Shown here: one piece after another, positions 17,620-64,000 of the stretch
How positions within the stretch are numbered: position 1 is the first letter of the stretch
How the letters are laid out: every line of letters starts with the position of its first letter
Source: Spirochaetales bacterium
GTDB lineage: Bacteria; Spirochaetota; JAAYUW01
DNA: 64,000 bases
Assembly (NCBI GenBank): GCA_012797605.1
Contig: JAAZOT010000050.1
Location: 4,655-68,654, forward strand
Direction of reading: 5' to 3'
Notes under the pieces: model-generated
Databases searched by the model: none
Seen by the model: only the letters and a program-made list of their open reading frames with translations
What the model was told of the DNA's origin: nothing
Program-made: the position numbers and the translations under genes

Positions 17620-18419
17620 ATTTTTTCCGTATGCTTTTTTCAAATAAAAAAGAATCAAAATCAAAAGATGAAGAAATTCCAGATCAAAGTAGTTTAAAAG
17701 ATTTAAAAAAAGAACAGATCAAAATGATAAATGGAATCATTGCTCTATCTGATACATATGCTCATGAGATAATGAAACCAAGAATAGATGTTGACTCTAT
17801 AGACATAAATGAACCTCTTGATAAAATCTTTGATAAAATAATAAATTGTGGTCATTCGAGAATCCCAGCCTATGATGAGTCTATAGACAATATTGTTGGA
17901 GTTCTATATGCAAAAGATTTATTAAAGTATTTTTTCAAAGAGCAAAAAGCAGAAATAAATATAAAAAAAATATTAAGAGAACCATTTTTTATTCCAGAAA
18001 CAAAAAAAGTGTCAGATTTATTGAGAGAATTTAAAGAAAAAAAAGTTCATATTGCCATAGTATTGGATGAATATGGTGGATTTTCTGGAATTGTATGTCT
18101 TGAAGATATTCTTGAGGAAATAGTTGGAGAAATTTTTGATGAATATGATACCGAAGAAAAATTAATAGAAAAAATTTCTGATAAAGAGTATTTAATAACT
18201 TCAAAAATCTCAATCTTTGACTTAAATGAAGAATTAAAACTTTCACTTCCAGAGGATTTGGCTGATACTCTTGGAGGTTTCATAATGGAGAATTTAGGAG
18301 ATATTCCTAAAAAAGGAGATAGTTTTACATATCAAAATTGTGAATTTTCAATTCATTCTATGACTGGATATAAAATAGATAAGGTTCTTCTTAAAATGAA
18401 AGAGCTGGATAATGAATGA
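17616..18419 (+). CDS. CBS-pair plus CorC/HlyC C-terminal domain protein (CorC/TlyC-like)
   Basis: 267 aa with a CBS pair (IMKPRIDV, HSRIPAY) and a transporter-associated C-terminal domain. It overlaps ybeY by 4 nt. Confidence 0.8.
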   Translation: MNFFRMLFSNKKESKSKDEEIPDQSSLKDLKKEQIKMINGIIALSDTYAHEIMKPRIDVDSIDINEPLDKIFDKIINCGHSRIPAYDESIDNIVGVLYAKDLLKYFFKEQKAEINIKKILREPFFIPETKKVSDLLREFKEKKVHIAIVLDEYGGFSGIVCLEDILEEIVGEIFDEYDTEEKLIEKISDKEYLITSKISIFDLNEELKLSLPEDLADTLGGFIMENLGDIPKKGDSFTYQNCEFSIHSMTGYKIDKVLLKMKELDNE

Positions 18420-19215
18420 AGGATTGATAATTGATACTGTAAATTTTGGAGTAAATAATAAAACTGTTTTAATATTTTCTAAAGATTCGATTTTGGAAAA
18501 ATTTTTTATTTATCTTCCAAAAGATAACTTTAATCTTATAGATAAATATAATAGATTGGACTATTTTATGATTATTTCATATGAAGTTCAACGAAAAGGA
18601 AATAGATTTGATTTTGAAATCATAGATGAATTTTTAGGTTTAAAAAAAGATTATAGAAAAATAATTATTAGCGCAATTTTGTCTGATTTATTAAAGAATT
18701 CTTTAGTCGAAGGTGATAAGTCAAATATTGATTATGAAAAAATCCAATTATTTATCGATTTCATGATAAAGGAATTAAATAACGATATAAAAAGTTATTT
18801 TTCATTACTTATTCTATTTATTTATTATCTTATTTCAAATTCTGGAGAGATTAATTTTTCATTTATTGAGAATGATAACAAGATATCTTCCGAATCTAGT
18901 TTGTTTTTTGATATTTATCATTATCAATTTATAGTTGCAAATAAGTTAGATAATGATCCATCAAAGTTTAATCAATCGACGCATGACCAATTAGATTTTC
19001 ATAATCGAAACTATTTTAAATGTCCTCAGCAGATATTATCAATCTTACAATTTAAACCCGCAAGTTTTGATAATATATATTATTACTTTAACAACCTAAA
19101 GAATTATGAGATAAAAATATTAAATAATCTTCTTTTCTTTTTATCAAATTTATTTAAAGTAGCTTATCACAGAAAGAATATTAAATCTTTAGAATTTTTA
19201 AAATATTTAAGTTAA
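18412..19215 (+). CDS. Hypothetical protein, possibly a divergent RecO lacking the Cys4 zinc finger
   Basis: 267 aa with an 8-nt overlap onto the upstream gene. The N-terminus EGLIIDTVNFGVNNKTVLIFSKDS matches the RecO OB-fold start pattern (EGIVLR..YGE..KIV.L), and the gene sits where recO follows ybeY in Firmicute-type operons. Similarity is weak. Confidence 0.4.
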   Translation: MNEGLIIDTVNFGVNNKTVLIFSKDSILEKFFIYLPKDNFNLIDKYNRLDYFMIISYEVQRKGNRFDFEIIDEFLGLKKDYRKIIISAILSDLLKNSLVEGDKSNIDYEKIQLFIDFMIKELNNDIKSYFSLLILFIYYLISNSGEINFSFIENDNKISSESSLFFDIYHYQFIVANKLDNDPSKFNQSTHDQLDFHNRNYFKCPQQILSILQFKPASFDNIYYYFNNLKNYEIKILNNLLFFLSNLFKVAYHRKNIKSLEFLKYLS

Positions 19216-22171: not shown

Positions 22172-22744
22172 ATGAAGACAAAATCAAATCTTCCTTTTTT
22201 ATTGATTCTTTTTTCATTATTCTTTTTTCTTGTTAACTTATCATCAATAAATTGCTACGCACAGGTAGCACCGACACTTCCACCAAATTTTTTTACTGAT
22301 GTTCCTTCAAATCATTGGGCTTATCAAGCTCTATTGAAGTTGTATCAGTTAGGGTTAATAACTGGTTATCCAGATGGAACTTACAAAGGAAATCAAGCTA
22401 TGTCGAGATATGAAATAGCTTTAGTCATTTATAAACTTCTAATTTATCTTCAGTCACAAATAAATAATACCAGCACTAATTTAACAAATACAAACTTGAC
22501 AAATGATAATTTCGAAAAAATCATCGCTGAAATATTACAAAAATCAAAACTAACTGAAGAAGAATTAAAAATATTGAAAGATCTTATAAATGAATTCAAA
22601 AATGAATTAATTTCCATGGAGAATCAGTATAAATCTTTGGAATTGAGAGTTCAAGCTCTTGAAAAAAATCAGACGGCTTTATATGTTTCTATTTCCTCTC
22701 TTGTGGTTTCTATTATTTCAATTATAATTGCCTTGGTTTTTTGA
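22172..22744 (+). CDS. SLH-domain coiled-coil envelope protein with C-terminal membrane anchor (Omp-alpha-like)
   Basis: Start moved to the ATG at 22172 (GAGG upstream). Signal peptide MKTKSNLPFLLILFSLFFFLVNLSSINCYAQ. SLH motif FTDVPSNHWAYQALLKLYQLGLITGYPDGTYKGNQAMSRYEIALVIYKLL. Heptad-rich segment, then a C-terminal hydrophobic helix ALYVSISSLVVSIISIIIALVF. Confidence 0.7.
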   Translation: MKTKSNLPFLLILFSLFFFLVNLSSINCYAQVAPTLPPNFFTDVPSNHWAYQALLKLYQLGLITGYPDGTYKGNQAMSRYEIALVIYKLLIYLQSQINNTSTNLTNTNLTNDNFEKIIAEILQKSKLTEEELKILKDLINEFKNELISMENQYKSLELRVQALEKNQTALYVSISSLVVSIISIIIALVF

Positions 22745-22754
22745 CGGAGTATTC

Positions 22755-25310
22755 ATGATTCTTACATATATCAGTAATTTTAGTATTCCAATTATTAAAA
22801 GAGTCTTTCTATTTATTATTTTTATTAGTACTATCATTTTTCTAATAAATACTTTGAGTTTCTCTTTGTATGCGCAAGAATCATCGAAAGATCAAAATCA
22901 ATATAATGAGTCAATTTATACTTATTTAAGTCCAGAAGAAGCTTATTTTATTATAACTTATTCTAATATAGATGAATTAAAAAAAATCGCTACTGCGCTT
23001 GGGATAAGTTTTTCAGATGATATCACAATTGACAACTTAAGAAAACTTCTATATGAGTATTATAATTTTAAGGAAATTAAAAAAGAAAGTTCTGAAGATT
23101 CCATCTTTATTAAAACTACAGATATAATAAATATTTCTGAAGAAGGCAAAATAATAGATCTTGTAGGTAATAATTATATAATTTATAAAGGATATATATT
23201 TAAAGCAGACAGAGTAGTTTTTTATACTGATGAAGAAACATTCTATGGATATGGAAATGTTAGTTTTAAATCATCCTCACTTGAAGCGACAGCAGAATCT
23301 TTTGAGTATTCTATTCCAAAAAAAAATGGAATACTTTATAATGCAACTATTTATATTGATAAATATATAATATCTACGAAAAAAGCAAACATTTCAAATA
23401 ATAGTGTGTTAACAACTGAAAAAGCAACTGTTACTCAATGTAATTATGATGATCCACATTATTTTTTAAAGGTAAGCAGAGTTTTATATTCTGAATCTAT
23501 AATCTATTTTTATGAAATTGAGCTTTATATAGGAAATGAAAATATGCTTTATCTACCTATCTATATTTCATATGAAAAAGGTTATGGCTATCCATTATTA
23601 TTTAGTATGGATTATGGGTATAGAGAAGGTTTCATGTTCTTTAATACTTTGAGCAAAAAAAATTATGAAATGTATTTTGATTTATATGAAAGACTTGGTT
23701 TATATATTGGTTTTAAAACTTCATTTAAATGGGCAAAAAATAGTTACAATTTATTAGCTGGATTTGCTATAAGTCCAGACTTGTTTTATTTACAAGAAGA
23801 TTATAGTTGGACAATTATTCCACCAGATAGTAAATTTTCATTATATAATATTAACTTAAGAACAGCTTTTAATGGGACATTAAAATTAAATCCTTTTTCT
23901 TCTTTGGGTATTACTATTAATTATGCTTACTATTCAGATCCTTATTTTAAATATGATTATTTTTTAAGGGAAAGATTTTTAAGATTTGATATTACCCAAT
24001 TTACTTCGTTTGATTGGGAAAATGATTATAATCTTTTTCCTTCAGCATTAATGAGCTTTAATGAAGAAGTTATAGTTAATATTAAGATATTAAAATATAA
24101 TTTAAACATATCTTCAGCTTTAAACTTTACTGCAACAAAAAATACTGAAGTAGATGAGCAGTCTCTTTTAAATTATCTATATTCTCCTAAGTATTATCAA
24201 TACTATTTGAGTTCGATTAAATGGTATTCTGCAAATTTTGGGGTTAACTTGTTCACATTTTCAAATAACTTTATAAATTTTAGCCTTAACAATTCAAATT
24301 ATTCAAATTATTATTCATATTATAATACTGATTTTGAGGTAACTAAAAAAACATTAATGGCAAATACTTCCTTAAATCCAAGTTTCTCATTTAAGTATAA
24401 CTTTTTTTCTTACTCTTTTTCTATGAATAATAATATTTCTTATTCAGAAACAATTACTGAAGGTACTACTCAGACTATTAATGAAACTTTAATCTATTAT
24501 TCTACTATTTCAAATTCAATTAATATTCAAATACCATTTGTTCGTCTTACTTTTAACATAGCTCAAAGTTACAGAAATTCTCTATTAGAACCAGTAGATT
24601 TTGGTTGGTTATCAAACAAGGCTACAGCTTCAATAATATTTAATCCATTTAGTTTTATAAGTTTTTCATCTAGTTTAGGCTATAGCTTTTTGAATACATC
24701 AAATCAAGATTTGTGGGAGATTAATCCTGAAAACTTTGATATTTTGAATCTTTCTGGTCAAATAAAAGATAAATATTTATTACTATCATGGAATTCTAGA
24801 TTTTATATTAATATTGAAAGATTTTTGTATCATCAATTTAACTTTTCAGTTAATATTCCTAAAATGAAGTTTTGGTTTTTTTGGATAACTTTATCAAATA
24901 GTATGAGCTTAAAAATAGATGAAACAAATCCATTTTTAAGTTCATTCGAAAATAATTTTAATCTTGCATTTTCTATAGAAAATCAACTTCAAATACTTTT
25001 TAGAGTTACTTCATATAATCAATTCCTATATAGATACTCATCTTTTGACGAAGCCTTTATAGATCTTATAAATTCTTTTAACTTTTTTAATTATGAAGCT
25101 AGGCTAAATTCTTATTTTGATTTAAGATCCTTATCATTATCAATAACTAGATACCTCCATGATATGACCTTACAATTTCAAATAACAGGTTCATTTGTTT
25201 TATCATCTGATAATACTCAGTATAGCTTTGTTCTTTCATATGCAATATATATAATATCAAACTTCTTAGAAGGTTATAAATATTCAAATCAATGGGAGAA
25301 TATTTTTTAA
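22755..25310 (+). CDS. Large outer-membrane beta-barrel protein with OstA/LptD-like N-terminal domain
   Basis: Start moved to the ATG at 22755 (GGAG upstream). N-terminal signal ends in SLYAQ. An OstA-like segment is present (GNNYIIYKGYIFKADRVVFYTDEETFYGYGNVSF). The C-terminal region is long, aromatic and Asn/Ser-rich, and ends in a terminal Phe (QWENIF), as in OMP beta-barrels. Confidence 0.5.
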   Translation: MILTYISNFSIPIIKRVFLFIIFISTIIFLINTLSFSLYAQESSKDQNQYNESIYTYLSPEEAYFIITYSNIDELKKIATALGISFSDDITIDNLRKLLYEYYNFKEIKKESSEDSIFIKTTDIINISEEGKIIDLVGNNYIIYKGYIFKADRVVFYTDEETFYGYGNVSFKSSSLEATAESFEYSIPKKNGILYNATIYIDKYIISTKKANISNNSVLTTEKATVTQCNYDDPHYFLKVSRVLYSESIIYFYEIELYIGNENMLYLPIYISYEKGYGYPLLFSMDYGYREGFMFFNTLSKKNYEMYFDLYERLGLYIGFKTSFKWAKNSYNLLAGFAISPDLFYLQEDYSWTIIPPDSKFSLYNINLRTAFNGTLKLNPFSSLGITINYAYYSDPYFKYDYFLRERFLRFDITQFTSFDWENDYNLFPSALMSFNEEVIVNIKILKYNLNISSALNFTATKNTEVDEQSLLNYLYSPKYYQYYLSSIKWYSANFGVNLFTFSNNFINFSLNNSNYSNYYSYYNTDFEVTKKTLMANTSLNPSFSFKYNFFSYSFSMNNNISYSETITEGTTQTINETLIYYSTISNSINIQIPFVRLTFNIAQSYRNSLLEPVDFGWLSNKATASIIFNPFSFISFSSSLGYSFLNTSNQDLWEINPENFDILNLSGQIKDKYLLLSWNSRFYINIERFLYHQFNFSVNIPKMKFWFFWITLSNSMSLKIDETNPFLSSFENNFNLAFSIENQLQILFRVTSYNQFLYRYSSFDEAFIDLINSFNFFNYEARLNSYFDLRSLSLSITRYLHDMTLQFQITGSFVLSSDNTQYSFVLSYAIYIISNFLEGYKYSNQWENIF

Positions 25311-28178: not shown

Positions 28179-28565
28179 ATGAAACAATTTAATTTTAAAG
28201 AGTTCTTTGAGTTCCTTTTCCCTGAAGATACAATAAAAGTAATTGCTCTTATCATTATTGTAATTTTATTAATACTATCAATTGTTATAACATTTGTTGT
28301 AGTCAAACATACAAAAAAAAATATAATTGAACAAGAGCCTCAACAAAAGGTAGTTCCCAAAATCGAAGATATGGATCTAATTGAACCAGAATATTTTATA
28401 GAAGAAAATTATGATTTCAATCTTATTATTAATCAAAAGGGAAAGCCAGAATTAAGTGATTTTGAGAATCTATTGAAATACCATGAATTCAGTGATTTTA
28501 CAGATTATTTTTTAAATTTGCAATTTTACGAAAAAAAAGTAAATGAGTTTTTGAAAAATGATTAA
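28179..28565 (+). CDS. Hypothetical single-pass membrane protein
   Basis: 128-aa ORF with one TM helix (VIALIIIVILLILSIVITFVVV). No recognisable motif. Confidence 0.5.
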   Translation: MKQFNFKEFFEFLFPEDTIKVIALIIIVILLILSIVITFVVVKHTKKNIIEQEPQQKVVPKIEDMDLIEPEYFIEENYDFNLIINQKGKPELSDFENLLKYHEFSDFTDYFLNLQFYEKKVNEFLKND

Positions 28566-41749: not shown

Positions 41750-41757
41750 TCCGATAT
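41750..41757 (+). promoter_or_regulatory. Sigma-28-like -10 box (TCCGATAT) upstream of flgC
   Basis: Matches 7 of 8 positions of the GCCGATAT/GCCGATAA consensus and lies 31 nt before the flgC ATG. No clear TAAA -35 element. It is embedded in an imperfect inverted repeat TATCGAAAAT..ATTTTTCCGATA. Confidence 0.3.
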
Positions 41758-41788: not shown

Positions 41789-42238
41789 ATGCTAGGAGCT
41801 TTTAATATAGCATCTACAGGTCTATCAGCACAAAGATTAAGAATGGATGTTATTGCAAATAATATTGCTAACGCAAACACAACTAGGACCCCTGAAGGCG
41901 GTGCATATCAACGAAAGATGGTTATATTTAGAACATATGACGAGAATCCTCAATTCTTATCTCCTTTTACTCCAGCAGGTTATGATAATAAAGTTGGAAA
42001 AGGAGTTAAAGTTGTAAAGATAGAAGCTGATGATTCACCATTTAGGTTAGTTTGGGATCCAAATCATCCTGATGCTATACAATCTGGTCCAAAAAAGGGA
42101 TATGTGATGATGCCAAATGTAAATATTGTTAAAGAGATGACAGATTTAATAAGTGCATCAAGAAGTTATGAAGCAAACACAGTCGTGATAAATAATGCAA
42201 AACAATTATATATGAAAAGTATTGACTTATTAAAGTAA
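41789..42238 (+). CDS. flgC: Flagellar basal-body rod protein FlgC
   Basis: 149 aa. N-terminus FNIASTGLSAQRLRMDVIANNIANANTTRT and C-terminus SRSYEANTVVINNAKQLYMKSIDLL are typical of FlgC. Confidence 0.9.
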   Translation: MLGAFNIASTGLSAQRLRMDVIANNIANANTTRTPEGGAYQRKMVIFRTYDENPQFLSPFTPAGYDNKVGKGVKVVKIEADDSPFRLVWDPNHPDAIQSGPKKGYVMMPNVNIVKEMTDLISASRSYEANTVVINNAKQLYMKSIDLLK

Positions 42239-42331
42239 TATTTTATAAATAGATGTGTAATAATATAAAAAGCTTTATTATACATTTGCAAAATATTTGA
42301 AATTTATAAAATGTTTTTTAAGGGGGAGGGG

Positions 42332-42706
42332 ATGCAATCATTTTTTAATTCTATTTCAAATGTTGTAAGTAATGTCAATGTTTCAAGAGTCACAAACTTA
42401 AAAACAGTAACTCCTACTGGTTACAATGTCCAAATGAAATCAACTTCATCAAAGCATTTCAATTATGTAGAAAAAAGCACTGATTCGCCAAATTTTTTAA
42501 ACTATCTTACAAATTCCATTAATGGAACTAATAATGCTTTGGTTAACGCAGAATTTTTGCAGCAGCAACTAATAGAGGATCCAGACAATACAAATATTGA
42601 TGAAGTTACTATAGCTGCAAAAGAAGCTGAAATAGCTTTAAATCTAACAAAATCTGTTATTAACAAACTAATCACTGGGTATAAAGAATTAATTAATATT
42701 AGATAA
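42332..42706 (+). CDS. fliE: Flagellar hook-basal body complex protein FliE
   Basis: Start at the ATG at 42332, preceded by GGGGGAGGGG. The C-terminal FliE pattern is present (VTIAAKEAEIALNLTKSVINKLITGYKELINI). Confidence 0.8.
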   Translation: MQSFFNSISNVVSNVNVSRVTNLKTVTPTGYNVQMKSTSSKHFNYVEKSTDSPNFLNYLTNSINGTNNALVNAEFLQQQLIEDPDNTNIDEVTIAAKEAEIALNLTKSVINKLITGYKELINIR

Positions 42707-48500: not shown

Positions 48501-49121
48501 ATGAAAGCTAAACATGGATTTACAGTTATGTTTTTATTGATTTTATTGATAATAGTTCTTTTTGCTGTTGTATATTGGTTTAATTATCTTGGACTTGTTA
48601 ATTTACCTAGAGCTTACAGTAAAATTGTATCAAGAATTCCAGCTATATCTTATGGAAAAGATATCACCGATCCTTTTTTACTTGAGAAAGAATTTTATGA
48701 TAAATTAAAAATATCATATGAATCCCAATTTACTCAATTAAAGCAATTTGAAGAACAATTGAAATTAAAAGAAGAACAGACAAACGAAAAAGAGAAAGCC
48801 ATATCTGAATTGGAAGCTTCTTTAAAAGAAAAAGAAGAAAATATTTATAGGAAATTAAAAGAATACGATGATTATAAAGAGAATATCAAAAAAGAGGCGA
48901 TTCAGTTTATTAACATGCCTCCTGCGGAAGCTGTTAAGATACTGAACAATATGGATATTCTTAAAGTTGTAGATATTCTTCGAGCTATGGATGAATACTT
49001 TGCCTCAATTGGTGAAACATCCTTGGTTCCTTATCTTGTAAGCTTGATGCCACCAGACAGAGCAGCAAAGTTAAGTGAATATAAGATTGAGGGATCTACA
49101 ACTTTTAGTCCAGCGCCATAA
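48501..49121 (+). CDS. flbB: Flagellar protein with N-terminal TM and MgtE-N/MotE-like domain (FlbB/YlxF family)
   Basis: 206 aa with a TM helix, a coiled coil and an MgtE-N-like segment (MPPAEAVKILNNMDILKVVDILRAMD). It holds the same position as ylxF/flbB between fliJ and fliK. Confidence 0.6.
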   Translation: MKAKHGFTVMFLLILLIIVLFAVVYWFNYLGLVNLPRAYSKIVSRIPAISYGKDITDPFLLEKEFYDKLKISYESQFTQLKQFEEQLKLKEEQTNEKEKAISELEASLKEKEENIYRKLKEYDDYKENIKKEAIQFINMPPAEAVKILNNMDILKVVDILRAMDEYFASIGETSLVPYLVSLMPPDRAAKLSEYKIEGSTTFSPAP

Positions 49122-53814: not shown

Positions 53815-54537
53815 ATGGGCAAAAAAAAGGAAAAACCAGGTAAGGCTCCTTCCTGGATTACAACAATGTCGGATTTAAATAATCTACTTCTTTGTTTTTT
53901 CATATTACTTTATGTCTTGACAGATGTTCAGGTTGAAAATATTCCAAGATTTTTTCCTTCTCCATTTAAAGGTGGTCTTGGACCAATGTCTGGCGGAAAT
54001 GCTTTAGAACCTGGGCAACTTGCTGAAATGGGCTCAAGGATAGAGTCACTTCCTTCTAGTGAAAAAGGTCAAAGTCTAGCAAAAGCGGTGGAAAAGGCAG
54101 TATCTTTGTTTCAACCAGAGATACTTGCCAAAAAAATGAAAATACAGTTAGAAGAAAGAGGAATAGTCATAACTCTTGGTTCAGATTTTTATTTTAAACC
54201 AGGATCAGCAGAATTAAACCAAAACGGAATAGAGGTTTTGCAAAAAATATATAAAGCTTTTGAGTTACTACCAAATAAAATAAGGATAGAGGGTCATACA
54301 GATAATACAATGATACCTTTTGGAAGTGAGCTATCAAAACAGTATCCAACAAATTGGGATTTGTCCTCAAAAAGAGCTATCAATGTCTTACTTTATCTTG
54401 AATTTTTAGGGATTCCATCTAAAAGATTATCCGCTGTTGCTTATGGAGACACAAGACCCATCGAAACAAATGAAACACCAGAAGGAAGAGCTTATAATAG
54501 AAGAGTAGAAATCGTTATTATGAGAGAAGAAGACTGA
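53815..54537 (+). CDS. motB: Flagellar stator protein MotB (OmpA-like peptidoglycan-binding C-terminus)
   Basis: 240 aa. The N-terminal TM is preceded by the conserved Asp (WITTMSDLNNLLL). The OmpA-like domain ends in NRRVEIVI. Confidence 0.9.
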   Translation: MGKKKEKPGKAPSWITTMSDLNNLLLCFFILLYVLTDVQVENIPRFFPSPFKGGLGPMSGGNALEPGQLAEMGSRIESLPSSEKGQSLAKAVEKAVSLFQPEILAKKMKIQLEERGIVITLGSDFYFKPGSAELNQNGIEVLQKIYKAFELLPNKIRIEGHTDNTMIPFGSELSKQYPTNWDLSSKRAINVLLYLEFLGIPSKRLSAVAYGDTRPIETNETPEGRAYNRRVEIVIMREED

Positions 54538-54561
54538 ATTTTATTTTTGTTTTTTTATCTA

Positions 54562-54590
54562 TTGACTTTATAAGTATTTGTTTTATTAAT
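54562..54590 (+). promoter_or_regulatory. Candidate internal sigma-70 promoter upstream of fliL
   Basis: TTGACT-N17-ATTAAT in the 131-nt motB-fliL gap. Confidence 0.25.
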
Positions 54591-54668
54591 AAAAAGGTTA
54601 AATAATAATGTTTATAACTATTGTATTTTGTATACCATAGCTAATTAAGTAAGATAAGGAGAAACAGG

Positions 54669-55253
54669 ATGGGGGATAAAGATAAATTAGATGATTTAAA
54701 TTTTGAAGATGAAGCCGAGTTAAATGAGACTGAAGCTGGTGCTGGTGAAGGTGAAGAGAAGAAACCAGCGGAGAAAAAAGGATTTAAAGGTTTATCTTCT
54801 GGTATAGTTAGAATACTACTATATATTATAGGTATCATTATTTTAATCGCAATATCTGTTACAATCTCTTATCTTGTAGCCTCAAAAACAGCTGAAAAAC
54901 CAGACAAGATTAGTATCGAACAAACATATAAGAATGTTACTCCTCCTTATGATACTTTAAGATTAGCCGATTTTACTATTAACACTTCAGATATTGATGA
55001 GCAGCATGTCATCCGTGTTACAATAGCCCTAGCTTACACTCAAAAAGATGCAGCTGTTAGTGCAGAACTAGCTCAAAGAGAAGCTCAAATAAGAGACATA
55101 ATAAATAGAATATTGAGTGCTAAGAGAAAAGATGAAATTGATTCTATTGAAGGTAAAGAAAACTTAAAAAATGAGATTAAAAATGCTATAAATAATATTT
55201 TAGTAAATGGTAAAATAAAAGATGTTTATTTCATTGATTTCTTTATTTCATAA
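54669..55253 (+). CDS. fliL: Flagellar basal body-associated protein FliL
   Basis: 194 aa with an acidic N-terminus, a single TM and a FliL-like C-terminal domain (FTINTSD...IRVTIALAY, KIKDVYFIDFFI). Confidence 0.8.
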   Translation: MGDKDKLDDLNFEDEAELNETEAGAGEGEEKKPAEKKGFKGLSSGIVRILLYIIGIIILIAISVTISYLVASKTAEKPDKISIEQTYKNVTPPYDTLRLADFTINTSDIDEQHVIRVTIALAYTQKDAAVSAELAQREAQIRDIINRILSAKRKDEIDSIEGKENLKNEIKNAINNILVNGKIKDVYFIDFFIS

Positions 55254-55280
55254 AAAAGAAAAGGTTTTGGTGGAGTTAAT

Positions 55281-56306
55281 ATGACAGAAGTCCTGTCACA
55301 AGATGAGATAGATCAACTATTATCTGCTATTAGTGCTGGTGATACTACTATTGAAGATGTTTCAAAAACAACAACCCAAAAAAAGATTAGAATATACGAT
55401 TTTAAAAGACCTTCCAAATTCTCAAAAGATCAACAGAGAGCCATTCGAATGATTTATGATTCTTTTGCCAGACTCTCTCAAACAACTTTATCTGCTATTT
55501 TGAGAGCACCTGTGCAATTTCATGTTGCATCTGTCGATGAATTGACTTTTGAAGAATTTACTAGGTCGATCCCTACTCCGACCACTATGGCAATAATTAA
55601 CATGGATCCTCTTAAAGGTTCTGCTATTTTTGAGATAGATCCAGCCATTACATTTGCAATAATAGATAGAATTTTTGGCGGAAAAGGTAAAACGACTCAA
55701 AAAATAACGAGAGAATTGACAGATATTGAACAAGCAGTAATGGAAAATATTATTGTAAAGTTGCTTTCAAATTTAAGGGAATCATGGGCAAACTATGTTG
55801 ATTTAAGACCAAGGCTTGGAACTATAGAGGTAAATCCGCAGTTTGCTACAATCATAGCGCCTACACAGATGACTACACTAGTAACTCTCGAGACTAAGAT
55901 TGGTGAAAATGAAGGTATGAGTAATTTCTGTATTCCAGCTTTAACTTTGGACCCTATCATTGGAAAACTTACTCCTACATATTGGTTTTCTTCATATAGA
56001 AAAGGAAAAGGATCAGAATATTTTATTTATTTGAAAAAAAGAATCGAGGATATACCTTTAACTATAAAAGCCGAATTAGGTTCTACAAAGATTAGATTTG
56101 GTGATGTATTAGATTTAAAAGTTGATGATATTGTAGCTTTTCATAATGTAAAAGTGACCGATGATATAAATATAAAAGTTGGAAATCATACAAAATTTCT
56201 TGGAAGACCTGGTATTTTTGATTCCAAGCTATCTGTCCAAATAACAAAAGTCCTTGAATCTCCAACTTTTGAAGATATATTATCCGAGGAGGAAGATAAT
56301 GGGTGA
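55281..56306 (+). CDS. fliM: Flagellar motor switch protein FliM
   Basis: 341 aa with the N-terminal CheY-P binding peptide LSQDEIDQLL, a middle CheC-like fold and a C-terminal SpoA domain. Confidence 0.9.
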   Translation: MTEVLSQDEIDQLLSAISAGDTTIEDVSKTTTQKKIRIYDFKRPSKFSKDQQRAIRMIYDSFARLSQTTLSAILRAPVQFHVASVDELTFEEFTRSIPTPTTMAIINMDPLKGSAIFEIDPAITFAIIDRIFGGKGKTTQKITRELTDIEQAVMENIIVKLLSNLRESWANYVDLRPRLGTIEVNPQFATIIAPTQMTTLVTLETKIGENEGMSNFCIPALTLDPIIGKLTPTYWFSSYRKGKGSEYFIYLKKRIEDIPLTIKAELGSTKIRFGDVLDLKVDDIVAFHNVKVTDDINIKVGNHTKFLGRPGIFDSKLSVQITKVLESPTFEDILSEEEDNG

Positions 56307-57348
56307 TGGTGCTCTTTCTCAAAGTGAAATAGATGCTCTTTTGCAAGGTACCGATAGTTTTCTAGATATGTCTTCTGGTGGTCCAGAATCTTCTGCATTA
56401 AATGAAAATGATATCGCTACATTAAAAGAAATTTTAACAGCTATAATTGATGCACAAAGCACTACTTTGAAGATTTCTACAAATAGTGATGTTCAAATTT
56501 CTAACCCTAAAATTGATATTATCTCAAAAGATGGTCTTGCTACTTTATTACCATTTCCAGTATTGCAGGTAAGTTTACCATTTGAAGATGAATTACCTGG
56601 ATTTAATTCTTATATCTATAAAGTGTCTGATGCCCTTTTACTTGGTTCTAAAATGATGGGACAGGAAAGTAAAGAACTAACCGAAATGATTTCTTCAGCA
56701 GTTTCCGAAGCTACTTCTCAAATAATTGGTTCATCTATTACTTATTTTTCAAATACTTTTAAGATACATATCAATACTGGTTCACCACAACATCTACAGG
56801 CAAATACATTTTCAGATTTAGTATTACCTTCTGACGATGTAATCGTATTTATTACTTACAATTTTAAAATTGATAGAACTGTAACAACTTTATACCATGT
56901 TATTTCTCTTTCAATAGCTCAAGTTTTATCAAGCTTGAAACAGGGAACTAAACCATCAGCAAGACAACAGGAAAGAGTTGAAGCAGTTAAAAGTTATGAA
57001 ATGCCTTCTGAAGCTAAAACAAAGGCTACAAGAACATATCAACCAGCTGCTTTTTCAAAACTTGAACCAGTTCTTTCAGATGAAGAAAATAAAAACATCT
57101 CATTACTTTTAGATGTTGAAATGGAAGTTACTGTTGAACTTGGTAAAACCCAAAAGACGATAAAAGAAATCCTATCTATGGGTGAAGGTACTATTATAAC
57201 ACTTAATAGATTGGCAGGTGAAACTCTTGATGTTCTTGTTAATGGTAAACCTATAGCAAAAGGTGAAGCGATAGTTATAGAAGAATATTTTGGTGTAAGA
57301 ATAACAGAGATTTTAAGTAAAGAGGCGAGAATATCTTCTCTCAAATAA
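56299..57348 (+). CDS. fliY: Flagellar motor switch protein FliY (long FliN with N-terminal CheY-binding peptide)
   Basis: Start at the ATG at 56299, an 8-nt overlap with fliM. N-terminus LSQSEIDALLQG. The C-terminal FliN/SpoA domain reads MEVTVELGKTQKTIKEILSMGEGTIITLNRLAGETLDVLVNGKPIAKGEAIVIEEYFGVRITEI. Confidence 0.85.
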   Translation: MGDGALSQSEIDALLQGTDSFLDMSSGGPESSALNENDIATLKEILTAIIDAQSTTLKISTNSDVQISNPKIDIISKDGLATLLPFPVLQVSLPFEDELPGFNSYIYKVSDALLLGSKMMGQESKELTEMISSAVSEATSQIIGSSITYFSNTFKIHINTGSPQHLQANTFSDLVLPSDDVIVFITYNFKIDRTVTTLYHVISLSIAQVLSSLKQGTKPSARQQERVEAVKSYEMPSEAKTKATRTYQPAAFSKLEPVLSDEENKNISLLLDVEMEVTVELGKTQKTIKEILSMGEGTIITLNRLAGETLDVLVNGKPIAKGEAIVIEEYFGVRITEILSKEARISSLK

Positions 57349-57354
57349 AATTAT

Positions 57355-57957
57355 ATGGAAAAAATTTTAAAAATTTTTACAAAAAAAAAATTGTTTTTTA
57401 TAATATTAGTTCTATTAATTTTTGTCTTCTGTACTCAAATATTTAGCCAAGATAACGGGAAAAATGCCCCCCAAGAACAAAACATTGATGTAATAAATAA
57501 AAATCTTTCTGATCAAAATACTGTTACTGAAAAAAAAGATTCAAATTCAATTGCTTCTTTCTTTTTAAGAACCCTGATAGTATTAATAATTTTGGTTGTA
57601 ATCTACTTCTTCATTAAATATAGATTTTCAAAATCTGTAGAAAATAAATTAACAGATAAAAATTTTTCAATTTTATTGAAACAACAGATTTCTAAAAATA
57701 TCTCTTTAGCTGTGTTGGAATTTTTCGGATCCTATTATATAATTTCAATAGGTAATGATATTAACATTTTGGAAAAAATTGAAAATCAAGAAACTATCGA
57801 TGCAATTAAATTGGAAGCTGGAAAGGAGCAACCAAAAAAAACTTTTTTAGAATATCTAGGATTTTCTGCTACTAAAAGTGAAAATTCTAATGTGATTTTA
57901 AAATTCAACCAATTAAAAGAAAAGATGAATAACATAAAAAAAGGCAACAGAGAATGA
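57355..57957 (+). CDS. fliO: FliO/FliZ-family flagellar biosynthesis membrane protein
   Basis: 200 aa with a signal-like N-terminus, a central TM (FFLRTLIVLIILVVIYFFIKY) and a C-terminal segment (ISLAVLEFFGSYYIISIGNDINILEKIE) resembling FliO/FliZ. It sits directly after fliY, as in Bacillus and spirochaete operons. Confidence 0.55.
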   Translation: MEKILKIFTKKKLFFIILVLLIFVFCTQIFSQDNGKNAPQEQNIDVINKNLSDQNTVTEKKDSNSIASFFLRTLIVLIILVVIYFFIKYRFSKSVENKLTDKNFSILLKQQISKNISLAVLEFFGSYYIISIGNDINILEKIENQETIDAIKLEAGKEQPKKTFLEYLGFSATKSENSNVILKFNQLKEKMNNIKKGNRE

Positions 57958-59195
57958 GTGATAATGTTCGATTTCAGATTTCCAGATATAATCCAAATGC
58001 TGTAATAATGATCAGTGGAGATATCAATAATAAATCATTTTTTATAATACAAGAAGGATCTGTTAGGCTTTCAAGTCCTCTATCAAAGATTATTGATGAT
58101 ATAGATACTGATCTAGTAAAAGGGGATTTTTTTGGCGTAGAATCTTGTATGGCAAATTTACCAAGGATAGAAGGAGCAATAGCTACTTCTCCAACCACAA
58201 TTATTTCAATTCAAAGAGAACAATTTTCAGCACTTATACAAAGGTCCCCAACTATACCTATAAAGATAATTAAATCATTCTCTGAAAAGTTAAGAAAATA
58301 TGATCATTTCATAGCCTCTTTATCATTAAAAGCAATTAATCAATCTAATATTAATGAAGAAGATACAATCTATTGTAATGCTAAATACTATGAACAACAT
58401 TCGAAATTTCCTTTCGCTTATAAAATCTATTTAACTTATTTAAAGCATTACCCTAGTGGGAAATATTCAAATGAAGTCAAACAAAAAGCGGTAAACCTTA
58501 AACCATATATAGAAAATGTTCCTTTGGAGATAAAAGCAAATGGCTTAAATGCTAATGTTCCGAAAGATTTTCTATTGTTTGTAGAAGGTGAACCTGGAGA
58601 TAGACTCTTTATCATTCAAAAAGGGAAAGTAAATATTACCAAAATAATGAATGATAAAGAGATACTTATAGCTGTATTAAAAGAAGGTGATATTTTCGGA
58701 GAGATGGCACTTCTAGAAAATAAACCAAGAACCGCAAATGCAATTACGGCAGAGGATTGCTCCTTTTTAATTGTAGAAAGGAAAAATTTCGATGCTATGG
58801 TTACAAGTCAACCGAGTTTAACAACTAAATTAATCACATTATTATCTGAAAGATCCTGGGTAGCATATAGACAACTTGAAAATTCATTGTTAGCTGAACC
58901 TATAGCAAAAATGTGGGATACTTTACTAATTCAACTTCAGAAGAATAGAGTTCTACCTCAAGATAATGCTAGTTTTACTTTCCCTTTTTCATTTGTTGGT
59001 CTTGTAAAGATGGTTGGACTTCCAGAACATGAAGCTCCAAGATATAAAACTGAATTTTTGCAAACAAAAAAATTCGAAGAGTATGAAGATAAAATCGTAT
59101 GTAAGAATACGATGTTAATACAAAATCAGGTTGAATTTTATCAAAAAATGCTTTTGCGAAAAGAAAAGATTCAAAAATTTAAAGAAGAAACTTAA
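57954..59195 (+). CDS. Tandem cyclic-nucleotide-binding (CNB/Crp-type) domain protein with TPR-like linker and a possible C-terminal wHTH
   Basis: 413 aa, start overlapping the fliO/Z stop (ATGA). CNB domain 1 has a degenerate phosphate-binding cassette (GDFFGVESCMANLPRIEGAIA). CNB domain 2 is canonical (LFIIQKGKVNI...GDIFGEMALLENKPRTANAITA). Confidence 0.75.
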   Translation: MSDNVRFQISRYNPNAVIMISGDINNKSFFIIQEGSVRLSSPLSKIIDDIDTDLVKGDFFGVESCMANLPRIEGAIATSPTTIISIQREQFSALIQRSPTIPIKIIKSFSEKLRKYDHFIASLSLKAINQSNINEEDTIYCNAKYYEQHSKFPFAYKIYLTYLKHYPSGKYSNEVKQKAVNLKPYIENVPLEIKANGLNANVPKDFLLFVEGEPGDRLFIIQKGKVNITKIMNDKEILIAVLKEGDIFGEMALLENKPRTANAITAEDCSFLIVERKNFDAMVTSQPSLTTKLITLLSERSWVAYRQLENSLLAEPIAKMWDTLLIQLQKNRVLPQDNASFTFPFSFVGLVKMVGLPEHEAPRYKTEFLQTKKFEEYEDKIVCKNTMLIQNQVEFYQKMLLRKEKIQKFKEET

Positions 59196-59213
59196 AGAAA
59201 AGGAGAAGTTGTT

Positions 59214-61718
59214 TTGTCATCTTTATTAGATCCTCGAAAAGTTCAAAAAGATTTAGTTATTCCGAAAGGCGCATTAATTTTCTCTTTTGAAGAAAATTTC
59301 AATAAATTAAATATGCTTGAATCTGGTTCGGTACAGCTATTTATTCAGATCGATAGTTCTAAGACCGAAAGATCCATTTGCATAGCAAAAGCAAAAAGAC
59401 TTATATACCCATACACCTTATTTTTAGAAAATAAAATCCCTATTAAATTAATATCATCAGAAGAATCAGTTATAAATTCTTACCCATTTTTACAACATCC
59501 CATCTCATTTTTTTCTCAAAACTTTCAAATGGGCAAATCAATTATGGTCTCCATCTTATCTGACTTTAATGAACTTTTAAATCAATATAAATTGTTTTGT
59601 AATTATTGTATAAGTGTTGAAAAGCTTTACGATAATATCATCCTATATCTTTCTCTGTCTAGAATATATCAAAATCTAGTCATTTATTCTGAAGATTCTT
59701 TCAATATCTATAAAATTGCGAAAGAATATGAAACTTTATTTAATGAAAACAATGGTTTTTTCCCAGGACCAGATAATTTTACCTTTTTTGAAACGGACAA
59801 TTCTAAATTCATAGGTAAAAAATACGAATTTATTTTAGATAAAGATTTGATAGATCAAACAATATTAAATCTTGGCTTAAGTTTTAGAAAGATAGATAAT
59901 GAAGTTCAAAATAATATTTTTAAACAAAATCCAGATTTACCATATTCTATATGTAAATTAAGCAGTAAACAGGTAAATAACCTTATCATTTTGTTTAAAG
60001 AAAAGATAAAGCTTCTGGATTCAAAACTTGATAGACTCTTTTCAAATCAAAACAATTTGTTTTATATTTTATTAAAAGGAATTCAAGATAAATTTGGTAA
60101 AGAAAAGACAAAAGCATTTTTTGATTACCTTTATAAATACTATGAAAATTTCAGTGAAAGATATAAAGATCTTTTTCAACTAATATCACTTCCATTCAAT
60201 CTTAATATAAAAGGCGATTTACTTTATCTTACTGAAAAGAAAGAAAAGAAGGTTGAACCTCAAATAACTAAGAAAGAAGCTAGTTCAGTAGATTCAATTA
60301 TATCAGATATTTTAGAAGATAATAAAAGTGAAAGTTTTTCACTTGATTCAATAATATTGAAAGAACAAAAACCTACAACTTCTACTCAATCTAAAATTTT
60401 CAATGAATTATGTCATTTCGGGAAGATTAAAGAAGACGATTCAAAGCTTTTAGGTAAGGCTCTTGATGCTTTTGTAAAGTTATCAGACAAGTTAGCAGAT
60501 AATGAAACAGTAAGAAAGATTCATAAGGCAATAAAGACAGTATATTTTAAGTTTTATCAATCTATTTTTTTAAGATACATTGAAGAGAAGAATCCTCCAA
60601 AAATAGCTGAGAGATTCCTGAAATTTGGGATTATCGACGAGAGACTCGTAAGTCCAGAAGATATGAACAGCATCATGGAGTTTTTAGATAATTCTAAAAA
60701 TGATTATGAGATATATAACCCTATTGAATGGTTTACTTTAATATATAATGAAAAGATTGAACCATCGATTGATGAACTTGGGCAAAGCTATGCTGATATG
60801 GAAAGGGAGGAAGCAAAAAGATATAAAAAAAGTGAAGATTCCGATCTTCCAACTAATCTTAGGAAATTGAAATTTGAAATAGAATCTTTTTATCAGGTAG
60901 CATATAGAATATTGACTTCTTCTCCGTTGACTGCTATCCCAATCTTTTTTTCTGAAAATTTAAGGGGAGGCTTAAAAGATTCGATTTTATCAAAAGAAAA
61001 AATTGCAAACGAATTTAATCAGATAAGAGATCTAGATTATACCCTTTTTTTTAGAGAAGCCATATATACTCAAGGGGATACCTATGATATTTATAAAAAA
61101 GAAATCCTTCCCTATATAATTATATTACCAGGAATTGGTGATAGAGTCATAATGTGGCAGGATTGTGGTTCAAATAAATACATGCCTGCAAGATTTGTCT
61201 TTCCAGCAGTTTTTACTGGTTCTGATTTAAGCAAATCAATAGCTCAAGCATGTGCTACATTTAGATGGGAGAGCAATAAAACAATGAAGGGGCCTGGTTG
61301 GGCAGATGCTACTTCGGGAGGGATAACAGGACAATATCTTGATTATTTACAGAGTTACCAAAAGAGCAATGAGCTTTCGATGGAAGCAAAGCAACAACTT
61401 AGGGAATCTTTGAGTAAATTCAGAACAGACAGGGAAAAATTTGCAAATGATTATATCCAATGGATTTTCTTTGAATCACAGGGAATATTAAAATTGAATC
61501 TTCTTTTGAGAAGAATCTTTATTTTTGAAATTCCATTTAAAAAAGATATTCTACTTAAATTGCAAAGACTTCCAGCCTATGAAAAACTTGTAACTACATT
61601 TATAAACAAGAGAAAGATAGAACTTAAAACAAGTATCTCAAGATATAGAAAGTTTGAAGATGAAGAAGGAATTCTGCCTCCTGAAATACAAAAACATATG
61701 GAAATGCTTAAAACATAA
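59214..61718 (+). CDS. Large orphan protein (834 aa) of unknown function downstream of the CNB protein
   Basis: TTG start with AAGGAG 8 nt upstream, 18 nt after the preceding stop. No catalytic or transmembrane motif recognised. The N-terminal ~110 aa are vaguely CNB-like. Confidence 0.7.
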   Translation: MSSLLDPRKVQKDLVIPKGALIFSFEENFNKLNMLESGSVQLFIQIDSSKTERSICIAKAKRLIYPYTLFLENKIPIKLISSEESVINSYPFLQHPISFFSQNFQMGKSIMVSILSDFNELLNQYKLFCNYCISVEKLYDNIILYLSLSRIYQNLVIYSEDSFNIYKIAKEYETLFNENNGFFPGPDNFTFFETDNSKFIGKKYEFILDKDLIDQTILNLGLSFRKIDNEVQNNIFKQNPDLPYSICKLSSKQVNNLIILFKEKIKLLDSKLDRLFSNQNNLFYILLKGIQDKFGKEKTKAFFDYLYKYYENFSERYKDLFQLISLPFNLNIKGDLLYLTEKKEKKVEPQITKKEASSVDSIISDILEDNKSESFSLDSIILKEQKPTTSTQSKIFNELCHFGKIKEDDSKLLGKALDAFVKLSDKLADNETVRKIHKAIKTVYFKFYQSIFLRYIEEKNPPKIAERFLKFGIIDERLVSPEDMNSIMEFLDNSKNDYEIYNPIEWFTLIYNEKIEPSIDELGQSYADMEREEAKRYKKSEDSDLPTNLRKLKFEIESFYQVAYRILTSSPLTAIPIFFSENLRGGLKDSILSKEKIANEFNQIRDLDYTLFFREAIYTQGDTYDIYKKEILPYIIILPGIGDRVIMWQDCGSNKYMPARFVFPAVFTGSDLSKSIAQACATFRWESNKTMKGPGWADATSGGITGQYLDYLQSYQKSNELSMEAKQQLRESLSKFRTDREKFANDYIQWIFFESQGILKLNLLLRRIFIFEIPFKKDILLKLQRLPAYEKLVTTFINKRKIELKTSISRYRKFEDEEGILPPEIQKHMEMLKT

Positions 61719-61885
61719 ATCTAATTTTCTATAAATTTCTATAAAGAGTTATTTTTTTAAAATAAACTAATTTTTTCTAAAATTTTTTTTTAATAAAATT
61801 TCTTTTCAACTAAAACTTAAAAATAACTAAAGATATCCATTAAAAATTTACTAAAAACTCTTATTGTTTTCCTTTTAATTATTTA

Positions 61886-61893
61886 GCCGATAT
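61886..61893 (+). promoter_or_regulatory. Sigma-28-type -10 box GCCGATAT upstream of fliD
   Basis: Matches 8 of 8 positions of the Bacillus SigD -10 consensus and lies 112 nt before the fliD ATG. No TAAA element at the canonical -35 spacing. Confidence 0.35.
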
Positions 61894-62005
61894 TTAAAAG
61901 AAAAGAAACCAGTTGAAATTTATTATAATAGTTCTATTTAATATATATAGATTAATAGATATAGATTTGGTTTAAAAAATCTTTTAGTCAAGGAGGGCTA
62001 AAAAG

Positions 62006-63883
62006 ATGGGTAAATTAACAATAAATAATCTTACTAATTCTGGAATTGATGTTCAAAACTATATAGAACAACTTATCAAAATAAAATCCCAACCTATCGA
62101 AAATTTAAAAACTCAAAATGATTCTTATAGCAATAAAATTAAAAAACTAAATGAACTTCTCGATTTAATGAAAAAACTTCAGGATGCTTCTAAATCTCTG
62201 TTTGATTATAGATCACCTTTCGATGAAATGGTTGCGAAATCTTCAAATGAAGAATATTTTACTGCTATAGCATCTAGAGGAGTTGATATTGCAAAGAGAA
62301 GAATAGAAATTTTGCAAACTGCTAAAAGTTATAGAATTGCCAGCGATCCAATAGCTGTAGATACTAAAATAGGAAAGGTAAATTTCAGTATTCAGGTTGG
62401 TGACTCTATAAGAAGAATATCATTTGAAGGTGGAAGTATCATTGACTTAGTAAATGCAATAAAGGAACAGGCAAAAGATATCGTAAATGTAAATCTAACT
62501 TATAAGGATAAAGATACCGTTTATGTCTCTTTCGAAGCTAAAAAGGAAGGGGTAAATAGTAATATTGTATTTTCCGAAGAGATTCAACCAATATTTGAGC
62601 AGCTAGGGATATTAATAAAATCTCAAAAGTCTGAATCCACTCTTTTGAAGGTAAATTCAATTTTATTGGATTCAGGTAAACAAAATAAGGTTGATATCCC
62701 ACAATCTATAAAAGGGCAAAAATTATTTGTAACATTTAATGTTCAAAAAAAGGAGTTTACTTTACCAAGTCCGACTCAAGTTCAAGTTCCAGAAGAAACT
62801 GGCTCTGGAACTCCTATAACTATAGATCCTCAAACAGTATATCCCGATCCAGTAAACGCAAGCCAGATAATAGATACATCTAATGTTTCAAATCAACCTA
62901 TGCAGGTAAAAGTGATAGGAAGTGATGGTGAGAAAATAATAGAGATCAATTCTTCTACTCAAAATTTTACAATAGATAAGGATCAACTAGGAATAGGTGA
63001 GATAAAATCCATTGAATTTGTTAATAGCTCTAGCAATAGTTATACAATAAGTGATTTTACTGTAAAAAGCGTTCAGGAAAAGGAAGGTTTTGTTGCAAAA
63101 AATGTTATTTCAGAAGGTAGAAATGCAATAATAACTGTAGATGGAATTAGAATTGAAAAAGAATCAAATGTCATAGATGATGTTATTAAGGGTGTGACTT
63201 TAACCTTAAAAAAAGAAACTAAAGGAGAAGAAACATTATCTATTGAACCTAATACTGATTTTATGAAAGAAAAAATAATAGAGTGGGTAGGACATTACAA
63301 CAATATGATTGATTTTATTGTTAATGAAACCAAGATCAATAGAGAAGGTGGAGAAAACGGAACGTTTGCTGGAGATACATCCTTTATGATGCTTCACAAT
63401 ACTATTCAGAGATTTATGCAATCTACTTATGGAGAAGGTCCATATAGGATGCTTGCACAACTCGGCATTTCAACTGGTAAACCAGGAAATACTCCAGCTC
63501 AAAAAGGTGGATATCTTGAGATAGATGAAGCTATGCTTGATAAGGCTTTAAAAGAAAATCCTTCAAAAGTCAAAGAATTTTTTGGTTTTGATTCTGATGG
63601 AGATAGAATTCCGGATAATGGTATTGGTCAGAGGATTTTCGATTACTTAAAAGGGATGACAAATTTTTCAGATGGAACTATCAAAAAGAGAACAGATTAC
63701 TTTTCAACTTTGATTACTGGAAATCAAAAGAGAATAGAAACCTTAAATCGGCAGTTAGAGATTTATAGAGATAACTTGATATACAAATTTGCTGTCATGG
63801 AAAATCTTATCTCAAAACTTAAAAGTGATGGAAATTATATCTCAACTTATTTAGGGAATCAAAATGCAAATAGCAACAAATAA
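62006..63883 (+). CDS. fliD: Flagellar filament capping protein FliD (HAP2)
   Basis: 625 aa. The N-terminus (SGIDVQNYIEQLIKIKSQPIENLKTQ) and the C-terminal heptad region (IETLNRQLEIYRDNLIYKFAVMENLISKLK) are typical of FliD. Confidence 0.85.
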   Translation: MGKLTINNLTNSGIDVQNYIEQLIKIKSQPIENLKTQNDSYSNKIKKLNELLDLMKKLQDASKSLFDYRSPFDEMVAKSSNEEYFTAIASRGVDIAKRRIEILQTAKSYRIASDPIAVDTKIGKVNFSIQVGDSIRRISFEGGSIIDLVNAIKEQAKDIVNVNLTYKDKDTVYVSFEAKKEGVNSNIVFSEEIQPIFEQLGILIKSQKSESTLLKVNSILLDSGKQNKVDIPQSIKGQKLFVTFNVQKKEFTLPSPTQVQVPEETGSGTPITIDPQTVYPDPVNASQIIDTSNVSNQPMQVKVIGSDGEKIIEINSSTQNFTIDKDQLGIGEIKSIEFVNSSSNSYTISDFTVKSVQEKEGFVAKNVISEGRNAIITVDGIRIEKESNVIDDVIKGVTLTLKKETKGEETLSIEPNTDFMKEKIIEWVGHYNNMIDFIVNETKINREGGENGTFAGDTSFMMLHNTIQRFMQSTYGEGPYRMLAQLGISTGKPGNTPAQKGGYLEIDEAMLDKALKENPSKVKEFFGFDSDGDRIPDNGIGQRIFDYLKGMTNFSDGTIKKRTDYFSTLITGNQKRIETLNRQLEIYRDNLIYKFAVMENLISKLKSDGNYISTYLGNQNANSNK

Positions 63884-64000
63884 AATAAAAAATACTTTTA
63901 TATTAATAACAACAGTATGTTTATTTATTTTTTTCTTCTCCTGTTCACAAGAGAATATGGAGCTTTTAAAGGCAAACAGATTGGCTTCAAGTGTACAACT
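63864..64000 (+). CDS. Putative lipoprotein, 5' part only (runs off the right edge)
   Basis: The ATG at 63864 overlaps the fliD 3' end by 20 nt in another frame. It translates to MQIATNKIKNTFILITTVCLFIFFFSCSQENMELLKANRLASSVQ, with a lipobox-like FFSC. Confidence 0.4.
   Translation, partial: MQIATNKIKNTFILITTVCLFIFFFSCSQENMELLKANRLASSVQ

Follow-up and report, generated by a model that had tools for sequence, protein, structure and literature searches.

A 64,000-nt stretch of the genome of a Spirochaetales bacterium (GTDB lineage Bacteria; Spirochaetota; JAAYUW01; GenBank assembly GCA_012797605.1, contig JAAZOT010000050.1, positions 4,655 to 68,654 of the forward strand), here called the window, carries within a flagellar gene cluster a gene for a 413-aa protein with two cyclic-nucleotide-binding (CNB) domains. 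As judged from profile comparisons and a structural model, the C-terminal half of this protein, which we term CNB413 (57954–59195, plus strand, as are the genes, domains and signals assigned below), is a complete homologue of the Crp transcription factors, and one of its CNB domains keeps a canonical ligand cassette. The domain architecture, the homology, the cassette and the gene's position in the operon, kept within one Exilispira-like clade, are established. The CNB413 family is large, uncharacterised and spread across Spirochaetota.

The sequence-only reading of this DNA had described an open reading frame (ORF) of 413 aa whose ATG overlaps the stop of a fliO/fliZ gene, with two CNB domains, the second retaining its cassette and the first degenerate. 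The gene is present as described, the sequence ATGA at 57954–57957 overlapping the upstream TGA, and the gene call is backed by Pfam, by a homologue search and by an AlphaFold2 model for which 19 family members served as input (predicted local distance difference test, pLDDT, 85.3; predicted template modelling score 0.77). The Pfam CNB model PF00027, the check proposed at the time, matched the whole protein at E=1.2e-35 in two stretches, and the N-terminal 130 aa alone scored 47.6 bits (E=1.6e-12; cutoff 27.5 bits). The cassettes quoted for the two domains map to 58695–58742 (FGEMALLENKPRTANA) and 58131–58184 (FGVESCMANLPRIEGAIA), and canonical contacts are present in the former and absent from the latter.

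The second barrel, CNB2 (residues 199–285, 58548–58808; best Pfam stretch 202–284), is the one that carries the canonical cassette FGEMALLENKPRTANA. In an alignment of 19 family sequences, reaching down to 39% identity, G249, P258, R259 and A261 never vary, and one sequence alone lacks E250. The best sequence matches of CNB2 in the PDB are the CNB domains of PKG, PKA-R, Epac and Crp. CNB2 is thus probably a cAMP/cGMP site, with ligand binding predicted from these conserved residues. The residue that follows the cassette arginine varies in the family (T, A, S, V or N), so that ligand specificity cannot be read from the sequence.

The first barrel, CNB1 (residues 8–97, 57975–58244), is supported by PF00027, the model and the same alignment, and its cassette FGVESCMANLPRIEGAIA is non-canonical: every aligned sequence has Gly-Val in place of Gly-Glu, Arg-Ile-Glu replaces Arg-Thr-Ala, and Arg71 is not conserved in the family. 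By sequence, CNB1 is conserved in a fashion of its own, yet without the canonical nucleotide contacts. This absence, the degenerate barrel of the neighbouring protein p834 (see below) in the same clade and the variable residue after the CNB2 arginine would all suit a sensor whose barrels bind another ligand or none, as in FNR, CooA, NtcA, PrfA and CprK. Such a protein would hardly be expected to keep the whole canonical cassette of CNB2, nearly unvaried across the 19 aligned sequences, nor to find its best CNB2 matches among proven cAMP/cGMP binders, and we consider this explanation very improbable.

Between the barrels, the model places a helix at residues 100–124, followed by a three-helix linker at residues 135–186 (58356–58511; helices 135–148, 152–165 and 172–186) that resembles a single tetratricopeptide-repeat (TPR) hairpin. 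Read by eye, the linker agrees with the TPR consensus at positions 8, 11, 20, 24 and 32, and its Y146 and P167 are invariant in the 19-sequence alignment; Pfam TPR models did not match it, even when the isolated segment was searched at E≤10. Of the TPR-like linker proposed from the sequence, the model supports the helices.

The sequence-only reading had also raised a Crp-type winged helix-turn-helix (wHTH) at the C-terminus, a suggestion that profile and fold comparisons now back. It passed over two things, namely that the C-terminal half as a unit is a whole Crp homologue and that the next gene encodes a second CNB-family protein. Positions 198–381/390 of the family profile aligned in one stretch with residues 21–205 of the 209 of Escherichia coli CAP (E ~4e-17) and with 31–222 of the 224 of MtbCRP (E=1.7e-23), and GlxR was aligned over the same unit. 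With hhalign, residues 200–383 fell on CAP 22–206 at 97.5% probability; the 183 aligned columns take in HTH and wing. Foldseek placed the model on the Clr–cAMP–DNA complex (7pzb_A) with a target-normalised template modelling (TM) score of 0.67 and a root-mean-square deviation (rmsd) of 3.7 Å; the corresponding TM scores were 0.64–0.65 for MtbCRP and 0.69 for CAP, and over these three Crp-family proteins the scores spanned 0.61–0.69. On this combined evidence, residues ~198–385 are assigned as a complete Crp homologue comprising sensor barrel, C-helix and winged HTH. The predicted C-helix (residues 287–310, 58812–58883), equivalent to the dimerisation and transmission helix of Crp, aligns with the C-helix region of CAP; the wHTH (residues 316–385, 58899–59108), with its order of helix, HTH and beta-hairpin, is called from hhalign, profile and Foldseek; and a long C-terminal helix seen in the model (residues 386–412, 59109–59189) lies beyond the end of the CAP alignment at residue 383. 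The wHTH call thus rests on profile and fold, the TPR-like call on the model and consensus positions.

Known systems resemble CNB413 in part. CAP, MtbCRP, GlxR of Corynebacterium glutamicum and Clr of Sinorhizobium meliloti correspond to its residues ~198–385 end to end and share a canonical Gly-Glu...Arg-[Thr/Ser]-Ala cassette. CNB413, however, is twice their size (413 aa against the usual ~200–250 aa of Crp/Fnr proteins) on account of the added CNB1, the TPR-like hairpin and the long C-terminal helix, and it lacks both a Pfam HTH_Crp match and the conserved DNA-contact residues; its DNA binding is a prediction. Since it departs from Crp in size, HTH sequence signature and DNA-reading residues, labelling it simply as a Crp would overstate the likeness. 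The tandem CNB-A/B proteins PKA-R and PKG also carry two CNB domains per chain and gave the best sequence and Foldseek E-values; there the barrels are joined directly, whereas in CNB413 they are parted by helix 100–124 and the three-helix linker, only one cassette is canonical, a winged HTH follows, and there is neither a kinase partner nor an inhibitor segment. A rigid tandem architecture of the PKA-R/PKG type was rejected (global TM ~0.2, rmsd 15–22 Å, with a long helical insert between the barrels). In the structural comparison with CAP and PKA-R suggested in the sequence-only reading, the C-terminal half superposes on CAP.

Drawing on the Crp analogy, our tentative preference, held with somewhat less than even confidence, is that CNB413 is a cyclic-nucleotide-gated, Crp-like regulator that is co-expressed with motility genes. 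In such a scheme, cAMP or cGMP would bind the canonical CNB2 cassette (Gly-Glu ... Arg-Thr-Ala) and re-set the C-helix; the winged HTH would thereby be freed or re-oriented to act on its target, most likely DNA, making CNB413 a transcription regulator. CNB1 and the hairpin would not be a second nucleotide site but a module for regulation or for binding a partner. As the CNB413 and p834 genes stand at the 3′ end of a long operon running from flgC to fliO, both proteins would probably be made whenever the motor genes are expressed, and this co-expression could couple cyclic-nucleotide signalling to motility in the Exilispira-like clade. Ligand binding, DNA binding, co-transcription and an effect on motility are what we infer from the established features, and the steps beyond the cassette are drawn by analogy.

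The gene lies in a cluster of flagellar genes. Upstream on the same strand, flagellar domains were recognised for a FlgC-like rod protein, FliE, FliF, FliG, FliH, FliI, FliJ, FliK, FlgD, FlbD and FliY, the last above its NCBIfam cutoff, and ORFs occupy the positions of flgE, motA, motB, fliL and fliM, whose orthologs in related loci carry the matching Pfam domains. Immediately before CNB413, a 200-aa membrane protein gene (57355–57957) matched FliO below threshold (Pfam 19.9 bits against a cutoff of 22, E=7.7e-4; TIGR03500 24.8 bits against a cutoff of 55, E=1.6e-5). Because these matches are sub-threshold, its identity as FliO/FliZ-like derives mainly from its position after fliM-fliY. On the other side, a gap of 18 nt separates the CNB413 stop from the TTG start of p834 at 59214, and an AAGGAG ribosome-binding site (59200–59205) lies 8 nt before that start. 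No terminator-like site was found on the plus strand of 54031–64000. A promoter scan returned 60 promoter-like sites against 65.8 expected in shuffled sequence, a result that says nothing on an internal promoter. A foreign origin of the region was considered and dismissed: the GC content, 25–35%, is continuous across it, with no sign of recent transfer.

p834 (59214–61718) encodes 834 aa, which, going by a homologue profile and a model (pLDDT 87.2), consist of a degenerate N-terminal CNB domain and a long helix followed by ~700 aa of unknown fold. The protein itself had no Pfam or NCBIfam match. A word-index search yielded seven relatives and an exhaustive profile search 532 representative homologues, of which 343 fell at E≤1e-30 and which are typically 750–870 aa long; those that bear names are Leptospiraceae or Spirochaetota 'cyclic nucleotide-binding domain-containing proteins'. 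Several distant members exceed the PF00027 cutoff at their N-terminus, positions 12–132 of the family profile align with CAP 21–135 (sensor and C-helix), and the first ~230 profile positions align with CNB413 residues 195–408 (E=3e-16). The cassette is degenerate in the Exilispira-like clade (YPY...IPIK), and a canonical FGE...PRTA occurs in one of 52 aligned members (P0178). Beyond the Crp/Fnr-like sensor and helix, the remaining ~700 aa found no PDB match by Foldseek or by sequence profile.

The question raised from the sequence, whether orthologs of CNB413 stay linked to flagellar genes, received a divided answer: they do in four Exilispira-like lineages and do not in 79 other genome loci or in Leadbettera azotonutricia. 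The window's CNB413 is 100% identical to a protein of an uncultured spirochaete, with close relatives labelled Exilispira. The order fliM-fliY-fliO-CNB-~830 aa-fliD is kept in four loci (L002, L082, L084 and L086; 50–91% identity). At L002, CNB413 is 91% identical to that of the window and the proteins overall are 64–97% identical; of the 80 genome loci fetched, L002 and the 79 others, it alone has the window's flagellar genes arranged in operon-like fashion within 10 kb. The more distant lineages (L082/83, L084/85 and L086; 50–55% identity) have a fliO of 206–219 aa and a p834 homologue of 818–847 aa, and their CNB start overlaps fliO by 8, 14 and 8 nt in L082, L084 and L086, respectively, according to gene calls. 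Conservation of CNB413 in these lineages equals that of FliY, MotB or FliD and far exceeds that of FliO. Within the Exilispira-like clade, then, the linkage to flagellar genes is real and old; elsewhere it was not found. The record of L002 (CAYVTU010000011.1) is titled 'uncultured Brachyspira sp.' though fully syntenic with the window, and the title is probably wrong.

Outside the clade, full-length orthologs at 37–42% identity are found in records of Treponema, Spirochaetaceae, Leptospirales/Leptospiraceae, Turneriella and Brevinema. When the ortholog from a locus titled Leptospiraceae was used as the query, 3673 proteins came up at E≤1e-30, all under metagenome-derived names. Public annotations read 'cyclic nucleotide-binding domain-containing protein' or 'Crp/Fnr family transcriptional regulator', and no functional study of a member was found in the literature on spirochaete, Treponema, Leptospira, TP0995/TP0089 and tandem CNB plus HTH proteins. 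Treponema-type loci have, by Pfam at L001, CysS, an extracytoplasmic function sigma/anti-sigma pair, a transglutaminase and MurB upstream and DUF192 and ClpB downstream; in other clades, representative sequences revealed SHMT, MutS, MiaB, PurB and LeuCD as neighbours. ORF clustering over 86 loci returned housekeeping blocks only, which differ among Treponema-type, Spirochaetaceae-type and Leptospirales-type loci.

Two unclassified Spirochaetota metagenome-assembled genomes (L077 and L078) carry tblastn matches to flgC and fliE at ~3500–4950 on the minus strand, adjoined in L077 by a flgB-sized ORF. These genes are upstream of the CNB413 ortholog at a distance of ~5 kb, with unrelated ORFs between, and run on the opposite strand; no other case of flagellar genes close to an ortholog was seen outside the clade. 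In a further Spirochaetota metagenome-assembled genome (L056), a truncated p834-family gene at 135–1010 lies ~9 kb upstream of the CNB413 ortholog, the only loose linkage of the two genes seen outside the Exilispira-like clade. Two p834 homologues examined elsewhere (L087, a Leptospiraceae locus, and L088) sit in housekeeping contexts with no CNB413 gene nearby. Both families are thus widespread and, where checked, unlinked but for L056; only in the Exilispira-like clade are they adjacent, inside the motility cluster.

Several of these observations weigh against a motility-linked transcription regulator. An ortholog within a flagellar operon was found in none of the 79 other genome loci, nor in L. 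azotonutricia, a scattering of the kind that the sequence-only reading had named as grounds for refutation, and the housekeeping neighbours imply that the core role of the family may have nothing to do with flagella. The window ORFs scanned encode no nucleotide cyclase. With regard to DNA binding, the Pfam HTH models PF13545 and PF00325 matched neither the whole protein at E≤0.1 nor residues 300–413 at E≤10. The equivalent of the recognition helix (residues 358–369) is the least conserved element among 119 family members, with a mean of 0.46, as compared to 0.75–0.82 in the CNB domains, the C-helix and the first wHTH helix. Moreover, the DNA-contacting residues R180, E181 and R185 of CAP align with E358, H359 and R363, which vary in the family, so that sequence-specific DNA binding by CNB413 is uncertain.

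The distribution outside the clade is what would be expected if CNB413 were a general cyclic-nucleotide-responsive regulator, a spirochaetal Crp with no special role in motility, that merely uses the operon promoter. The 79 distant loci and L. azotonutricia without flagellar linkage, the neighbours that differ by clade and the housekeeping surroundings of p834 homologues at L087 and L088 all fit such a history, in which the CNB413–p834 pair would have landed where an ancestral fliO–fliP junction broke in the clade. In spirochaete and Bacillus operons, fliPQR and flhBA normally follow fliO/fliZ. None of fliP, fliQ, fliR, flhB and flhA was recognised in any large ORF scanned in the window, so that FliO is encoded apart from its usual companion FliP, and their absence points to a rearrangement at exactly this junction. 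A history of this kind is harder to reconcile with an arrangement that persists across lineages differing by ~50% in CNB413 and ~60% in p834, with junctions that overlap or are very tight, and with flagellar genes flanking the pair on both sides (fliO and fliD). We regard this history as somewhat unlikely.

The variable recognition helix and the operon position can also be read together in another way: CNB413 might bind no DNA and, when loaded with cAMP or cGMP, dock on a flagellar component to alter rotation, switching or assembly. Its targets could be FliM, FliY or FliG of the C-ring, the MotAB stator, or FliO and the export gate, with p834 as a possible partner, and CNB413 would then be the cyclic-mononucleotide equivalent of the c-di-GMP brakes YcgR and MotI. 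In keeping with this, the gene comes straight after fliM-fliY-fliO and in four lineages overlaps fliO, as is usual for proteins that are made together; the helix that would read DNA varies most, while other winged-helix surfaces are highly conserved; and this very site joins two CNB-family genes which, bar L056, proved unlinked in the other loci checked. In addition, the receptor behind a sub-second cAMP response of Leptospira swimming is still to be identified (PMC9043183). However, fold and end-to-end homology both point to a transcription factor, elsewhere in the phylum the orthologs do not adjoin motor genes, and CNB413 contains no PilZ or other known motor-binding domain. The analogy drawn in the sequence-only reading with YcgR and MotI (DgrA), second-messenger receptors tied to flagella, came from operon position; those are PilZ proteins binding c-di-GMP, and neither Pfam nor NCBIfam detected a PilZ domain in CNB413. 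The presence of a whole Crp homologue in the C-terminal half favors a regulator over a motor-bound receptor, and a direct effect on motor or export apparatus seems unlikely to us. Its most far-reaching form, in which CNB413, possibly with p834, would be the missing direct link from cAMP to the flagellar motor, a cyclic-mononucleotide receptor whose Crp scaffold, its DNA-reading helix degenerate, has been turned to binding C-ring, stator or export gate and altering rotation within seconds, we hold to be decidedly improbable. The proposal that a cyclic nucleotide feeds into flagellar assembly, expression or rotation draws on the gene's position in one clade, and the link between CNB413 and motility is circumstantial.

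A Pycsar-type anti-phage system was likewise considered and rejected: PADLOC matched only residues ~190–300, corresponding to the CNB part of CNB–TIR effector models, there is no effector domain or cyclase, p834 had no PADLOC match, and the neighbours are flagellar.

Downstream of p834, an AT-rich gap of 287 nt leads to fliD, the gene for the flagellar filament cap (62006–63883; PF07195 E=1.3e-54 and PF02465 E=2.8e-17, above the Pfam cutoffs). Within this gap, GCCGATAT (61886–61893) resembles a sigma-28 −10 box and may serve as one, a suggestion made by resemblance. The same gap contains similar boxes in L002, L082, L084 and L086 (TCCGATAT, TTCGATAA, GCCGATAA and ATCGATAA), and TCCGATAT also occurs at 41750–41757, 32 nt ahead of the gene that opens the flagellar cluster. 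None of these sigma-28-like boxes had a convincing −35 element. Around the box in the window lies a 15-nt inverted repeat (61868–61904; 87% complementary, 7-nt spacer), which could be an operator or a chance product of AT-rich sequence.

At its other end, the cluster opens with the FlgC-like rod gene (41789–42706), which has both rod-protein Pfam domains and is followed by fliE. No flgB lies upstream of it, the preceding gene being indigoidine-synthase-A-like. Four ORFs of 128–860 aa in the window are without a Pfam match (48501–49121, 22728–25310, 18412–19215 and 28179–28565); the one of 206 aa has fliJ on one side and fliK on the other, and L084 has an ORF of about that length in the same place.

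For the favored mechanism, in which CNB413 acts as a cyclic-nucleotide-gated transcription regulator, the nearest precedent is SYCRP1, a Crp of ordinary size that acts on pilus-based motility and whose gene is not known to lie in a motility operon. SYCRP1, from Synechocystis, is a Crp-family cAMP receptor that is needed for motility and controls it via gene regulation (PMC9043183).

The control of flagella by c-di-GMP through PilZ proteins is well known, and control by cAMP or cGMP is known mainly in a slow, transcriptional form. The position of CNB413 in the operon together with its predicted cyclic-nucleotide sensor hints at, rather than proves, cyclic-nucleotide control of swimming. In Leptospira, light-made cAMP alters swimming in less than 1 s, and a direct action on the motor was left open (PMC9043183). 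The CNB413 family provides a specific candidate for this cAMP–motility question, with one intact predicted cyclic-nucleotide site on a Crp scaffold across Spirochaetota and, in one clade, a gene embedded between fliO and fliD together with a second CNB-family gene. The components are familiar; the two-barrel Crp architecture and its clade-specific pairing with p834 in a flagellar operon are, as far as we found, undescribed in the literature. Were the direct link to the motor true, it would account for how Leptospira swimming responds to cAMP in under a second, and the operon of the Exilispira clade would be a genomic 'fossil' from which the function of a phylum-wide family could be read. Even if CNB413 is an ordinary transcription factor, the analysis brings out a two-barrel Crp architecture, uncharacterised and thousands of members strong, as well as a partner family of ~830 aa whose C-terminal region of ~700 residues has no known fold.

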